From: Eledone cirrhosa
Taxonomy: Eukaryota
Assembly (NCBI GenBank): GCA_964016885.1
Contig: OZ024763.1
Location: 7,006,001 to 7,070,000, forward strand
Direction of reading: 5' to 3'
DNA: 64,000 nt
In this document: piece by piece, positions 5,508 through 62,011 of the stretch
Layout of the letters: each line of letters starts with the position of its first letter
How positions within the stretch are numbered: the first letter of the stretch is position 1
The notes under the pieces: model-generated
Database searches by the model: none
What the model was told of the DNA's origin: nothing
Seen by the model: the letters and a program-made list of their open reading frames with translations, nothing else
Translations under genes and position numbers: made by a program

Positions 5508-5754
5508 CATGATCCTTATTATTTAACGTCTGCTTCCCATTACTATCTTAGAGGGAAAGAATCAAGTTAGTCTTGAAATATGATTGAAGACTTTACAAGT
5601 TCTTCAGTTCCTTTCCAGTTGTATAAATCTAAACCAAGACCCATCCCTCACTCTTCTACAAGACAGCTGTCTTTAATATATTTACAACCTTCACTCCTTC
5701 TCAATCTAAACACAACTTTATTTAGCTTTGTTTGTTTGTTTTTCGCATGCTACT

Positions 5755-6750
5755 CTTTTACTGGTTTCACTCATTAGACTGTGGCCATGCTGGGGCACTG
5801 GTTTCACTCGTTAAGTTGTGGCCATGCTGGGGCACCACATTCTATAGTCTTCTTTTACTGGTTTCAGTGATTAGACTGTGGCCATGCTGGGGCACTGGTT
5901 TCACTCGTTAAGTTGTGGCCATGCTGGGGCACCACATTCTATAGTCTTCTTTTACTGGTTTCAGTGATTAGACTGTGGCCATGCTGGGGCACTGGTTTCA
6001 CTCGTTAAGTTGTGGCCATGCTGGGGCACCACATTCTATAGTCTTCTTTTACTGGTTTCAGTGATTAGACTGTGGCCATGCTGGGGCACTGGTTTCACTC
6101 GTTAAGTTGTGGCCATGCTGGGGCACCACATTCTATAGTCTTCTTTTACTGGTTTCAGTGATTAGACTGTGGCCATGCTGTGGAACTGGTTTCACTCGTT
6201 AAGTTGTGGCCATGCTGGGGCACCACATTCTATAGTCTTCTTTTAATGGTTTCACTCATTAGACTGTGGCCATGCTGGGGCACTGGTTTCACTCGTTAAG
6301 TTGTGGCCATGCTGGGGCACCACATTCTATAGTCTTCTTTTACTGGTTTCAGTGATTAGACTGTGGCCATGCTGGGGCACTGGTTTCACTCGTTAAGTTG
6401 TGGCCATGCTGGGGCACCACATTCTATAGTCTTCTTTTAATGGTTTCACTCATTAGACTGTGGCCATGCTGGGGCACTGGTTTCACTCGTTAAGTTGTGG
6501 CCATGCTGGGGCACCACATTCTATAGTCTTCTTTTACTGGTTTCAGTGATTAGACTGTGGCCATGCTGGGGCACTGGTTTCACTCGTTAAGTTGTGGCCA
6601 TGCTGGGGCACCACATTCTATAGTCTTCTTTTACTGGTTTCAGTGATTAGACTGTGGTCATGCTGGGGCACTCTTCTTTTACTGGTTTCACTCACTAGAT
6701 TGGCCATGCTGGGGCATTCTTCTTTTACTGGTTTCACTCATTAGATTGTA
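5755..6750. repeat. 97-bp dimeric tandem repeat (~10 copies) built from a SINE-tail-like motif
   Basis: Period 97 (5860 to 5957); each unit has two tgtggccatgctggggcac motifs that occur dispersed at ~8880, 51815 and 54410. Confidence 0.9.
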
Positions 6751-8206: not shown

Positions 8207-8266
<60 letters not shown>

Positions 8267-8393
8267 AAAGTTTTATTTAAAATTGTTGGGTTACAACGAG
8301 TAAATATTTTATAACTGATATAAAGCACTCAACAAGTTTTGGAGTAGATATACGATATTAAACAAATGGAAACTATATTTATAAAACCATATT

Positions 8394-8459
8394 TATTTCA
8401 TTATACATATTTCAGGGATACCATATTAAAAATATGGCATGCCTTCTTCAGATAAAATA
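8394..8459 (-). ncRNA. Minimal type I hammerhead ribozyme (left arm)
   Basis: Minus strand: stem I TATTTTAT/ATGAAATA, core CTGAAGA, stem II AGGCATGCCATATT-TTT-AATATGGTATCCCT, GAA, stem III ATATGTAT, cleavage nucleotide A. Confidence 0.8.
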
Positions 8460-8603
8460 CAATATATAAGCAGTTTTATAAATAAATTTGACGTACCATA
8501 GAATATTCATCAACTTCCATTTAAAAAAGTTGGTTTTTTTAAATGGAAGTTGATGAATATTCCATGGTACGTCAAATTTATTTATAAAACTGCTTATATA
8601 TTG

Positions 8604-8669
8604 TATTTTATCTGAAGAAGGCATGCCATATTTTTAATATGGTATCCCTGAAATATGTATAATGTAATA
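8604..8669 (+). ncRNA. Minimal type I hammerhead ribozyme (right arm)
   Basis: CTGAAGA 8612-8618, stem II 8619-8649, GAA 8650-8652, ATATGTAT 8653-8660, A8661, stem I 3' strand ATGTAATA (one mismatch), overlapping AATAAA. Confidence 0.78.
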
Positions 8670-9091
8670 AATATAGTTTCCATTTGTTTAATATCGTATA
8701 TCTACTCCAAAACTTGTTGAGTGCTTTATATCGGTTATAAAATATTTACTCGTTGTAACCCAACAATTTTAAATAAAACTTTTGCATATATATATATATA
8801 TATAGGAGGGTCAGCTGAAAAGTTCATTGGTTGGACAAGATACTCTCATGGAATGATCAAATGAGGTTTATTCTTTCATGTGGCCATGCTGGGGCATCAC
8901 CTGGCAGAAACTTAGTATATCATATCAACCCCAATATTCTGTAATTGGTTTCAGCTATTAGACTGTGGCCATACTGGGACAGTGGCACCTTGAAGGGATT
9001 TAGCTTATCACACACACACACACACACTCATCTATATATATATATATATATATATACTCCCGATTGAACCCGGGATAAACATATATATATA

Positions 9092-13478: not shown

Positions 13479-13885
13479 CTATCTATCTATCTAAGGCGGG
13501 TAAAATTCCCGAGATCCATGGACGAGTTCTCTCCAGCGGTCTGTCTCTCATTATCGCTGCCATGTCCTGCATCTCCAACAGACCAGTGTCTGTCCTTAGG
13601 GCATCAACATACGTTAACCTTGGTCTTCCTCTTCTAGTGTGTCCATGTAGGGGCTCCCACAGGAGCACTGAGTGCAATGTCAACTCTGGATGTCGGTGAG
13701 CATGTCTAGCCAACCTCAGTCTCCTCTGTGTCACTTTTGAGCTGACTTTTGCTGTAGTGGTGTCTGTGCTGCTGTATGGGTCTGAGACTTGGACACTGAC
13801 CAAGAAACTCACTCAGATGGTGGATGGGTGCTACACGAGAATGCTGAGGATGGCTCTGAACATTAATCAGTATACACTGAGGATG
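13479..13885 (-). mobile_element. RTE-clade LINE (family 2) 3' fragment with 5' inversion
   Basis: 13493-13750 minus strand encodes [38 protein letters not shown]; 13751-13885 plus strand encodes [31 protein letters not shown]; (AGAT)n tail; flanking ATGGATATAT duplication. Confidence 0.9.
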
Positions 13886-21062: not shown

Positions 21063-21067
<5 letters not shown>

Positions 21068-21260
21068 AACGAGTAGGACCCCGACGGTTGAGCTCAAGCT
21101 GTTTCGACAGCTAATTCTGGACTAGTCCAGAATTAGCCGTCGAAACGGCTTGAGCTCAGCCGTCGGGGTCCTACTCGTTCCTATTACCCACTCTTCTACC
21201 CTAAGTATTGAGTACTTTGGTGCGTTATGGTCCACCTGGTTCCTTACCACATTTCCTTCG

Positions 21261-42813: not shown

Positions 42814-42863
<50 letters not shown>

Positions 42864-42866
42864 CAA

Positions 42867-42921
42867 ACTGCCTGAAGAGGTCACAGCCAAAGATGGCTGT
42901 CACTGAAATATATATAGCAGT
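42867..42921 (+). ncRNA. Minimal type I hammerhead ribozyme in a 110-bp insert between (TA)n tracts
   Basis: ACTGC-CTGAAGA-GGTCACAGCCA-AAGA-TGGCTGTCACT-GAA-ATATATAT-A-GCAGT-AATAAA; predicted cleavage after A42916. Confidence 0.88.
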
Positions 42922-42965
42922 AATAAACGAAGCTAAATTTTAATCATTTGACTTTTATTTAACTT

Positions 42966-43004
<39 letters not shown>

Positions 43005-45307: not shown

Positions 45308-45767
45308 ATATATATGTGTGTGTGTGTGTATATATGGCCATGAAACAGCACAAGGAGTTATATAGGTAGATAGACACACACACACACACACGTGTGTGTG
45401 TGTGTGTGTGTATAGTAGACATGATGGTTTAATGTGAAGTAATTTAAAATCTGTGAAACAGGAGCAGGAAAACCACTTTAATAATGACTGTATTTAATTT
45501 GATATAGTTCTATATTAGCTGGGGGCAATAGGGAGAGCCAGTTTTATATAATTACATTGTTGTTTGTATTATTTCAGTAAATATTATAGTCATATAGGTG
45601 TGGGGGATGGTAGGGGGTTACAGTACACGTGGGGGCTGGAAAATAGTTATGTGTGAAAATATGAGGAAATGGTTGTGGGTGTTATACAATGGAGAGATTA
45701 GTAAATTTGATAAAATCATGAAATAACTGAGAATTATAAATCCCTGGGGCTAGTAAAGAAATAATAA

Positions 45768-46300
45768 TTGTTTCTACTTTGGGCACAAGGCCAGCAATTA
45801 CCTCAGTACATTACTGGTACTTTATTTTATCGACCCCGTAAGGATGAAAGGCAAAGTTAACTTCGGGGGGGGATTTGAAGTCGGACCATAAAGGGGCGTA
45901 ACTCTATGCTGCAAAGCATGGCGTCCGACTCTCTACCGATACTGCCAATCCCCAATAATGATGATTATTATTATGGTGGATTGGCAGTAATCGGTAGAGC
46001 GTCAGACACCATGCTTGGTAGCATAGAGTTACGCCCCTTTAAGGTCTGAGATCAAATCCTGCCAAGGTTAGCTTTACCTTTTATTTTTATGAGGTTGATA
46101 AAATAAAGTACCAGTAATGTACTGAGGTAATTGCTGGCCTTGTGCCAAAAGTAGAAACATTATGTTGGTGGTGGATTAGCAGAACCAGTTCAATGTTGCA
46201 CAACATGCTTTGTGGCAGAGTTACGGCCCTTTACGATCTGAGTTCAAATCCCGCCGAGGTTAACTTTGCCTTTCATCCTTACGGGGTGGATAACATAAAG
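45768..46300. mobile_element. S1 SINE cluster: minus copy (45768-45952) head-to-head with plus copy (45974-46158), then a partial plus copy
   Basis: Each copy matches 14385-14571. Confidence 0.9.
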
Positions 46301-48962: not shown

Positions 48963-49535
48963 GTAGTTTTGAAGACCGGAAAAGCTGGGCTGGGCTGGCA
49001 TGGTTCATCAATTATAAGTATGCTGCACTAAATTACTCCTTTGAAAGTTCCCTGAAGACCAACATTTCACACACTACACCCCACCCCCCACCCTCCCTCA
49101 CACCACCCAACCATTACCCCCTAACCATTACCCCCTCCACTACCCCTACCACAATATAAAACAGCAGGGTAGAGAGATATAATCACTTGTGGTTAGGCAG
49201 TTCGATTTACTATTGCAAGGCCTTTGGTTCGACTCCTGGGTTTGGCCGGGCCAGTGTATAGTAGTGGCCTTGGGCAAGATTACTTTTCTACTTTTCATTG
49301 TATGGATTGAAGCCCTACCATTAAAATACTTGATAAACCCTCATGAGAGAGGGCAACCTTGTAGAAAGCCAGCTAAACCTGCAGAGTCGGGAGCTGTAAA
49401 TTTCACGCACACGCACACACACTCACACACTCACACACACACAATTGTTTCATTTATTGGCCACAAGGGCCTATCTATCTATATATAAATATACGATATA
49501 TTAACAAATGGAAACTATATTTATAAAACCATATT

Positions 49536-49600
49536 TATTTCATTATACATATTTCAAGGACACCAAGTTAAATTATGGTGTGCTTTCATCAGATAAAATA
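49536..49600 (-). ncRNA. Minimal type I hammerhead ribozyme in a Penelope-like pLTR fragment (~49490-49640)
   Basis: Minus strand: TATTTTAT-CTGATGA-AAGCACACCA..TGGTGTCCTT-GAA-ATATGTAT-A-ATGAAATA; flanks align to the 8.3-8.5 kb arm. Confidence 0.82.
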
Positions 49601-51088
49601 TAATATAGAACAGTTTTATAAATAAATATTGACATACCCTTAAATAAATATATATATACAGATAGATATATATATGACCAAAATTGCGGGAGGACTCAAT
49701 AAGGGTTGTATGTGTGGGTATATATATATTTGTGTGTGTGTGTGCGCACAAAAGCGGGATCTTTTGAAAAACACACACGCATACACATATATAAACACAC
49801 ATACAATCAATAACCACCCACAAAAGCATCTCTCTCTTTCTCTCACATCATTCTGTTTGTATTAGCGACTGTATAACACCTCACTCCAACCCCCTGCTCC
49901 GCCCAACCCCACTCTGAAGTGGTACCAACTACAACATGCTTCTTTGCCCATCTTAAAACATTAACCCTTTACACATCCACATTAAAAATAGCTGTATAAA
50001 TGTGTGTTTCTTCCCCCTCTCTCTCTCTCTCATTTTCTCTCTCTCTCTCTCTCTCATTTTCTCTCTCTCTCTCTCTCATTTTCTCTCTCTCTCTCTCTCA
50101 TTTTCTCTCTCTCTCTCATTTTCTCTCTCTCTCTCATTTTCTCTCTCTCTCTCTCTACACACACACATATACATATATACGCACGCACACACATGCTTCT
50201 GTTTTAACTCCAAGCATGGTTTGTTTTGGCAGCTCTCTGTGTGTGTATTTTATCCACCCCTCCCTACTCACCCTCATCTACACCCCACACTCATAAATAA
50301 TTGTATTAATTTACTGCCAACCTTGGCCTCATTCATTATCAGCAACATGTAATAGGAAGGAGGCAGGCATAGCTGTGTGGTTAAGCAGTTTATTTTGCAA
50401 CCATGTGGATCTGTGTAGTCAGTTAAAACCCTGTCTCTTCCTGTCATTGGAAGGGCAGGGACGTTTCTGCCAGGAGTTGTGACTGACACAGACAGTATCA
50501 GCAATAGAAAGACCTGACCCCATCTAATGGTCAACACCTTTCCTCTGCCAGGAGTTGTCACTGACAGACAGTATCAGCAATAGAAAGACCTGACCTCATC
50601 TAATGGTCAACACCTTTCCTCTGCCAGGAGTTGTCACTGACAGACAGTATCAACAATGGAGAGACTAACGGAATAGGTATTTCCTTGGTCTGATCACCCA
50701 TTTACCTAAGTTAACATCTTCTGACCCTTCCTTACACAGCGTTCCAGTTTTTACTAATGTTATTTCTAAGCAATAGCAATTAACGAATTTCTTTCATTAA
50801 TTCCACTGCTCCAGATTAACTGCTGTAATAATTAGTGTGTTATTTAAAGACATTCCTGCTAATTAGTGCTGAAAGCTCTTGTTAAGAAAATATCTCTGAA
50901 TGTCAACCAAATCTCACAGCAATACGCTGTCTCCTACTTGTCTTCTCTTATAATCGAATACATCTCGAGATTTATTGAAGCCTCTCAAGTATTTCAGCTT
51001 CAGCTATTTACCTGCTGTCATCATCATCATCTACACACACACACACACACACCAAGCATGGAAAATGGATGTTAAACAGTGATAATGA

Positions 51089-51266: not shown

Positions 51267-51326
51267 TTTATTAGGCTCTGATGATTCCTGCCAAAAGGTG
51301 AGGATGAAACACTGTAAGTGAATAAA
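51267..51326 (+). ncRNA. Degenerate hammerhead ribozyme motif in a ~310-bp insert (51150-51460) next to (TA)n
   Basis: CTGATGA 51278-51284, stem II TCCT/AGGA plus GCC/GGT (U.U closing pair), GAA-ACACTGT-A, stem I GCT/AGT plus TTTATT/AATAAA. Confidence 0.55.
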
Positions 51327-55676: not shown

Positions 55677-55681
<5 letters not shown>

Positions 55682-55936
55682 ATACTTTGGGAGGGTCATG
55701 TTGCCAATAAGAAACACATGCACCAGTTGCTTTCACTTCAATTTATTATATATTTATAAATTTACAAATCTACAAACTTATAAATTTCTGGTTGGTTGGT
55801 TGGTTCCACAACCAGATAGTTGTTTATATATATAGTCATAGTCTTATTGGCAACATGACCCTCCCAAAGTATAACAATATCGGTTTCAACACACGATTTC
55901 AGATAAAGAATCTTGCTAAACAAATTCAGAAACGAA

Positions 55937-57110: not shown

Positions 57111-57371
57111 CTATTAATAATGAGTTCAAAACTCAGGCAGTCCTTTACAATGAAATAGCTCAAAGAAAGAAGTATTTCTGAGCCGTGTAATACAAGTTAA
57201 TATAAATTAATATATTTGATAAACACAAATACCAACATATCCGTGTTTGTATTGTAAATGTCTAAGTTAGCTAACTGTAAATGACAATCTAGCTAACTTA
57301 GTCATTTACAATACAAACACGGATATGTTGGTATTTGTGTTTATCAAATATATTAATTTATACTAACTTGT
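57111..57371. mobile_element. Fold-back insert in (TA)n: 81-nt tail plus palindrome with 82-bp arms
   Basis: Arms 57192-57273 and 57290-57371, 16-nt spacer. Confidence 0.65.
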
Positions 57372-57384
57372 GTATATATATATA

Positions 57385-57611
57385 GGAAAATGTGTGAGAT
57401 CCTTGGTACAGTTAGGTATATTTAAAAAAACGAAAAGAATGACTTCACTTGTAGTTCTAAACATTTGGATTAAATTTTATATTATTTTACAATTTGGTTT
57501 TATAGAAACCAAATACTAAAATCTACAAAACCAAATTGTAAAATCGTATTATAAAATTAAATCAAATTTAGAACTACTAGTGAAGTCATTCTTTTCCTTT
57601 TTTTAAATATA
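57385..57611. mobile_element. Second, more diverged fold-back insert in (TA)n: 32-nt tail plus ~90-bp-arm palindrome
   Basis: gaaaagaatgacttcact..gtagttctaaa..ttttacaatttggtttt mirrored by aaaaccaaattgtaaaa..tttagaactac.agtgaagtcattcttttc. Confidence 0.6.
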
Positions 57612-61598: not shown

Positions 61599-62011
61599 CT
61601 ATCTATCTAGGCTGTGTAAAATTCCTGAGATCCATGAATGAGTTCTCTCCAGCAATCTCTGTCCTTCATCATCGCTGCCATGTCCTGCGTCTCCAAGAGA
61701 CCAGTGCCTGTCCTTAGGGTATCAATATATGTCAACCTTGGTCTCTCTCTTCTAGTGTGTCCATGTAGGGGTGGTCTCACAGGACCACTGAGTGCAGTGT
61801 CAACTCTGAATGTCAGTGAGCATGTCCTGCTAACCTCGGTCTCCTCTGTGTCACTTTTGAGCTGACTTTTGGGATGCTCCCATACAGCTCCGAGTTCTTC
61901 ATCCTCAGTGTATACTGATTAATGTTCAGAGCCATCCTCAGCATTCTCGTGTAGCACCCATCCACCATCTGAGTGAGTTTCTTGGTCAGTGTCCAAGTCT
62001 CAAACCCGTAC
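61599..62011 (-). mobile_element. 5'-truncated RTE-clade LINE family 2, colinear copy
   Basis: [65 protein letters not shown], (AGAT)n tail. Confidence 0.9.

Follow-up and report, generated by a model that had tools for sequence, protein, structure and literature searches.

A ribozyme-bearing palindrome in Eledone cirrhosa, probably a head-to-head pair of a dispersed, Penelope-like repeat

Penelope-like elements (PLEs) are described as having inverted, 5'-truncated copies, tails and a bias towards (TA)n (PMC8557442). PMC3846280 gives head-to-head inverted pseudo-LTRs (pLTRs) as their usual form, with self-priming on antisense RNA as the explanation, and inverted pLTRs are elsewhere listed as a routine feature (PMC8969392); the way in which the inverted ends arise is still described as unresolved (PMC8557442; PMC3846280). 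Minimal hammerhead ribozymes are reported to occur mostly singly, with some opposite-strand pairs 100–700 bp apart and with a palindromic helix III, and the one minimal hammerhead that was tested as a monomer was inactive (PMC4209133). The protein of an anole element cuts and extends both strands and is predicted to form a dimer, and reverse transcription of this element starts at two internal sites, which define its tail (PMC11167929). The inverted, opposite-strand arrangement of hammerheads is thus, as such, already in print (PMC4209133; PMC3846280).

In the current work, we describe a palindrome at 8264–8785 of a 64-kb stretch of DNA (the window, analysed at its full length), which probably consists of two hammerhead-bearing repeats of 270 nt joined 5' to 5' within (TA)n and likely placed there in one insertion by a Penelope-like enzyme. 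The original prediction, made from the letters of the window, had announced a near-perfect fold-back with a 6-nt loop, one 14-bp indel and few substitutions, and both its coordinates and its differences were confirmed: the arms span 8264–8528 and 8535–8785 around a loop at 8529–8534, they differ by three substitutions (left-arm positions 8316, 8398 and 8500), and the right arm is without a 14-bp segment that is present in the left arm at 8375–8388. These 14 bp are retained in a single-armed relative at 49486–49646, and all four arm differences seem to fall on the right arm. The palindrome is bordered by (AT)n on both sides (Table 1), and a mirror comparison of the sequence beyond these flanking microsatellites returned weak matches only (E 0.03 or worse). 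No ATG-started frame of note was found inside the palindromic unit, in keeping with the absence of coding capacity that had been claimed for it. The right flank starts with a segment at 8805–8830 that we take to resemble a mariner-type terminal repeat, and beyond it matches a 97-bp tandem array at 5751–6670.

Table 1. Features of the palindrome and its surroundings (positions in the window)
Feature	Position	Strand	Basis or remark
(AT)n microsatellite, left target side	8210–8263	.	sequence
Left unit, optional 3' tail, 84 nt	8264–8347	-	X15 loose (TA)n before 8348; X1 depth drop; end of the 49486–49646 copy
Left unit body, pseudo-LTR-like, 5' boundary near 8535	8348–8535	-	X15 joints 8461/8535, 8472/8535, 8462/8535
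Left type I minimal hammerhead motif, stem I 8 bp, predicted cut after 8402	8394–8459	-	
Splice-donor-like motif, GT at 8496–8495	8490–8497	-	alignment; inference
6-nt loop	8529–8534	.	by reads, part of the left unit 5' end, no spacer
Right unit body, ~8 nt shorter at the 5' end	8536–8701	+	14-bp deletion between 8-nt direct repeats
Right type I minimal hammerhead motif, one U-U mismatch in stem I, predicted cut after A8661	8604–8669	+	
Right unit tail, 84 nt	8702–8785	+	mirrors 8264–8347
(AT)n microsatellite, right target side	8786–8804	.	sequence
Joints with head-to-head side length	8337/8469, 8395/8479, 8461/8535, 8472/8535, 8477/8507		X15

The two outward-reading type I hammerheads of the original prediction lie where they had been placed. 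In each arm, a CUGAAGA core (minus 8451–8445 and plus 8612–8618) is followed by a stem II region of 31 nt and then by GAAA, stem III is the self-complementary UAUGUA, and the type I features (CUGANGA and GAAA core, NUH site, three helices) are all present; the geometry of the plus-strand motif agrees with the cleavage position predicted after A8661. The palindromic short helix III and the long helix II are as in metazoan PLE minimal hammerheads. The AATAAA that the original prediction noted behind the ribozyme shares bases with stem I, within DNA that is very rich in A+T, and is evidence of nothing. The computational search for the motif gave a divided result: a strict hammerhead descriptor found four motifs in the window versus none in 100 block-wise dinucleotide shuffles, but of the 52 matches that an Rfam search gave at E<=10 none was to a hammerhead; they were to hairpin-driven microRNA families only, below the gathering score. 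The identification therefore depends on the descriptor and on covariation. When the four window motifs (both arm motifs, that of the 49486–49646 relative and one at 42872) were aligned, 59 of 60 cells paired and 8 of the 15 pairs changed on both sides, a level reached by none of 500 shuffles, and slid structures scored far worse; these are four related sequences, from which the tested structure was itself drawn. The closing pair of stem II is A-U in three of the four aligned motifs and G-U in the fourth, instead of the conserved G10.1-C11.1, and the unpaired base after A9 is likewise lacking.

Read variants add a further view of the motif. Among the variants for the X runs over 8264–8600, of which 40 were listed and 37 further rows fell outside the listing, 14 of the 40 lie inside the hammerhead motif, and of these none affects the 12 invariant core positions, one is at N7 and one in loop II, seven keep pairing, and five break stem II pairs when taken singly. 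The commonest listed change in stem III, at 52% of X1 depth, yields a perfect palindrome. By the listed variants, core nucleotides are thus conserved among copies, as had been anticipated, and the hammerhead motif is, from this pattern and from the covariation, under selection in the repeat family.

Part of the arm is contained in 10 of the 17 listed public runs, four of which (X1, X4, X5 and X15) were mapped on 8264–8600 and supply the figures given here. Matches were found in 4,651 of 16,517,967 contigs in X1, 81 of 8,254,286 in X5 and 4 of 36,057,305 in X4, and in 35,508 of 12,467,656 reads in X15. Summed depth in X1 peaks over the 3' side of the hammerhead and falls by three orders of magnitude towards 8535 (3.6 million at 8384–8395, 49,000 at 8492–8503 and 3,300 at 8528–8539); it is the shape of this depth that informs, as summed depth is not copy number, and the fall-off towards the 5' end partly reflects subfamily divergence upstream. 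Depth also drops at 8348, where loose (TA)n ends occur in X1, X5 and X15 (6,422 X15 reads run on as (TA)n), and the single-armed relative at 49486–49646 (minus strand; 87% identity over 163 nt) is without the tail, ends at the place equivalent to 8348 and has a hammerhead with compensatory stem II changes. Taken together, the depth drop, the (TA)n reads and the end of this copy identify 8264–8347 as an optional tail, so that there are two 3' ends, 8348 and 8264, and the palindrome carries the tail on both arms. The single arm, a repeat of about 270 nt, is the family, and it is present in very high copy. In one low-depth X4 contig of organism B (record 9), the tail region seems to be tandemly repeated, with loose ends at 8267 and 8324, which suggests that the 84-nt tail can form arrays.

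Of the 15 joints listed, 10 join opposite strands, all at different places. The starts of X15 reads (8438/8441) and their ends (8281 and 8485) coincide with SphI and MluCI sites, and five of the ten opposite-strand joints have sides exactly as long as 5'-to-5' joining predicts from these library cut sites (Table 1); three others are ambiguous, and two resemble tail-to-tail joining. In three joints, one of which has two letters in the gap, an arm begins at 8535, and this recurrent start implies that the apparent loop belongs to the 5' end of the unit, which recurs. About 21 X15 reads from four starts pass through a like centre into a mirrored arm, versus 355 covering 8508. Twenty of the 21 carry at 8555 the family-majority base, which is missing from the 8264–8785 locus, with at least two haplotypes visible; these reads therefore derive from other copies. 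Support per joint is 5–21 reads, except for one joint with 86 reads that all share a start, and all of it comes from the same reduced-representation library; its double-digest design under-samples symmetric palindromes, and PCR chimeras may be among its reads, so that the joints serve as indications and give no rates. Depth and joints alike display the 5' truncation and the inverted, 5'-truncated partners expected of PLEs. Consequently, the expectation of a mobile family rather than a one-off fold-back holds for the single arm; for the palindrome it holds in part, since a like centre recurs in the ~21 reads, but fold-back joints occur at many places and ten of them each differ. The palindrome is a recurrent head-to-head pair, whose members are most likely Penelope-like pLTRs.

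These joints also bear on two other accounts of the symmetry. The whole palindrome could be a replicating non-autonomous unit, copied in one piece (as hairpin RNA or as DNA) with a fixed centre, and the centre-crossing reads, with their foreign base and their haplotypes, speak for this, as does the under-sampling of symmetric palindromes in a double-digest library. We nonetheless consider it unlikely: those reads are few beside the 355 over 8508, ten other joints differ, X1 depth over the centre is below 0.1% of the peak, and a shared 5' boundary alone would yield near-identical centres repeatedly. Alternatively, a single copy may have come first and acquired its mirror arm later by fold-back at the DNA level (a break, hairpin priming or template switching beside (TA)n), with no element enzyme involved. 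Several unrelated fold-backs in the window, of which three adjoin (TA)n or A+T runs, and the apparent placement of all four arm differences on the right arm are in its favor, whereas on either side the mirror breaks off precisely where the tail ends, the flanks past (TA)n are unmirrored, and the partners in the other joints are cut at varied points, as described for Penelope-like insertions; such an origin is improbable.

A miniature inverted-repeat element (MITE), mobilized through its terminal inverted repeats by a DNA transposase that targets TA, would account for perfect inverted termini in a TA context, but the copies are not, as a rule, bounded by both inverted termini. Instead, coverage is polar, copies are mostly single-armed (as at 49486–49646) and end mainly at 8348 rather than 8264, and the ribozyme is conserved; the MITE reading was accordingly rejected as very improbable. 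Homology of the arm to a DNA-transposon terminal repeat, which would have counted against the original prediction, is thus not what the copies show. It is scarcely credible that the palindrome is a fold-back artefact of long reads or assembly. No record in the mapped runs spans the 8264–8785 locus, and the 14-bp deletion of the right arm is not among the listed indels, but the flanks beyond the microsatellites are unmirrored, which argues against a fold-back read, the arms differ by four events, and independent short reads cross a like centre.

Under the preferred reading, that of paired insertion by a Penelope-like enzyme, the RT-endonuclease would nick both strands of a symmetric (TA)n target, and each nick would prime a cDNA that begins internally on its template RNA, either at the tail end or at 8348; the latter end coincides with a TATAT match to the target. 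The two cDNAs would then be joined where each stops, at their far ends. Usually, one or both would stop early, or a single one would be kept, whereas at 8264–8785 both would have run almost to the shared 5' boundary, possibly the RNA start. Either a non-autonomous short RNA or the 5' portion of the mRNA from a full element may have served as the template. A donor-like motif lies 39 nt inside the 5' boundary and is kept in the 49486–49646 copy (alignment of two copies); as a candidate splice donor, it would fit a template from the 5' part of the full element's mRNA, with a retained 5'-UTR intron. A more specific version, which we put forward tentatively and at less than even chances, is that a Penelope-like enzyme has made the family from a short RNA, with a fixed 5' end and two internal priming sites, and that the pairs are the footprint of simultaneous two-strand priming by a dimeric RT-endonuclease at symmetric (TA)n.

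Folding predictions bear on what such a pair could do once inserted. Each strand has only one sense ribozyme, and read-through RNA contains a 250-bp hairpin; the transcript of the full palindrome has a predicted fold of -379 kcal/mol, and a hammerhead imposed on it carries a penalty of 87 kcal/mol on the plus strand and 78 kcal/mol on the minus strand, as against 5–9 kcal/mol in a lone arm. The lone left arm is itself predicted to adopt the monomer hammerhead fold at a frequency of only ~6 in 100,000, a rarity that would be expected for a dimer-type motif. In a head-to-head pair, moreover, transcription always passes through the antisense arm first, so that the downstream ribozyme is paired as it emerges. 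The proposed competition between ribozyme and hairpin, acting as a self-silencing switch, was therefore rejected: the hairpin is favoured by 78–87 kcal/mol, and the complement of the ribozyme is made first. With this hairpin, and with a single sense ribozyme per strand in a type that is expected to need a dimer, we predict no catalysis by the inserted copy in read-through RNA, and the 8264–8785 locus is most likely an inert insertion. In transformed Drosophila, siRNAs that match inverted Penelope regions have been reported (PMC3681739); small-RNA or editing pathways could likewise act on the hairpin.

The search for a parent element covered the window, sequence collections and published consensus sequences. 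No RT or GIY-YIG gene was found in the window, where motif scans gave chance-like matches only and six ORFs had no Pfam match. Two minus-strand frames at 13483–13812 and 61607–61918, likewise with no Pfam match, seem akin to the C-terminus of a non-LTR retrotransposon protein. Two exact family patterns had no loci in metagenome, viral and prokaryote contigs (four collection scans), and four short family motifs had no match in the Naiad/Chlamys/Hydra consensus supplement, where 70-letter line breaks could hide a motif. The original reading of PLE-type minimal type I hammerheads in an inverted pLTR arrangement is supported, while membership in Penelope is not proven, as no RT or endonuclease gene is linked. 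The arm motif adds a hammerhead variant that is apparently undescribed so far: in the literature covered, with Repbase, Dfam and most subscription papers outside it, we found neither this variant nor, beyond the papers cited here, a coding-free head-to-head hammerhead unit. The density of microsatellites and the SINE-like repeats of the window would fit an octopus. In Octopus vulgaris, PLEs are reported to make up 6.83% of the genome in 190 families (PMC13282606), so the arm family may already sit in a repeat library.

Other repeats in the window deserve mention. It holds five hammerhead motifs from three families. A 118-bp solo hammerhead unit of another family (42858–42975, plus strand), located between two (TA)n runs, has the same GAAA-UAUAUA-UA stem III and C-C stem II mismatch, with compensatory changes in stems I and II. 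The fifth, hammerhead-like motif (51273–51325, plus strand) was missed by the strict descriptor and matches model R1 weakly (E 0.81); its U-U closure and palindromic stem III resemble listed Hydra-clade motifs, and it lies 129 nt from a (TA)n run. Coding-free fold-backs at 21066–21181 (116 bp, 95%), 57192–57371 (180 bp, 94%) and 57432–57596 (165 bp, 80%) lie beside (TA)n or A+T runs, are without a hammerhead core and are single-copy in the window. An inverted pair of a SINE-like repeat with many further copies in the window occupies 45764–46163, and a 201-bp MITE-like element with perfect 36-bp terminal inverted repeats adjoins (TA)n at 55677–55877.

A family this short and very abundant, with its recurring 5' boundary and its many different head-to-head joints, makes it possible to tell self-priming on antisense RNA apart from priming on two strands, and offers a useful test set for how inverted Penelope ends form. 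If the tentative proposal of a short-RNA product with two-strand priming is true, many thousands of copies would allow a direct count-based test of inverted-end formation, and the genome would have in the pairs an intrinsic supply of hairpins for silencing, with the ribozyme locked off.

Among known systems, Hydra-1_Obim and the octopus Naiads share the (TA)n preference, and Hydra elements bear hammerheads (Craig et al., 2021, supplement); Hydra-1_Obim was rejected as the parent because its listed hammerhead has other stems. Non-LTR retrozymes are likewise short, non-coding, equipped with a type I hammerhead and related to pLTRs, but they are described as head-to-tail tandems that allow dimeric cleavage (bioRxiv 10.64898/2026.07.22.740005); 8264–8785 is no such tandem, being head-to-head with one sense ribozyme per strand, and a retrozyme identity was rejected. 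In Poseidon of Anolis (PAc), as here, two 3' ends define a tail downstream of the hammerhead and the target is A+T-rich (Frangieh et al., 2024); its ORF starts in stem II and its priming proceeds without homology, whereas no ORF starts in stem II here and the 8348 end falls on the TATAT target match. The minimal hammerheads of metazoan PLEs (Cervera and de la Pena, 2014) agree with ours in being type I with a long helix II and a short palindromic helix III, and in occurring as mostly single, dispersed motifs with some opposite-strand pairs at 100–700 bp; unlike those described, helix II has 9–13 bp with a conserved C-C mismatch here, A-U or G-U replaces G10.1-C11.1, and no extra base follows A9. 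The closest likeness in layout is to the inverted pLTRs of endonuclease-bearing PLEs (Adineta Pen2/Pen3; Craig et al., 2021, fig. 2; Repbase Penelope-13_HM), which share the head-to-head inverted copy, the 5' truncation, the optional 3' tail and the microsatellite target. The palindrome differs from them in having no ORF between the arms, near-perfect symmetry and a tail at both ends, and its tail has 84 nt versus 30–40 nt for PLEs; Penelope-13_HM is, like the palindrome, listed with a hammerhead on each strand and a (TA)n preference.
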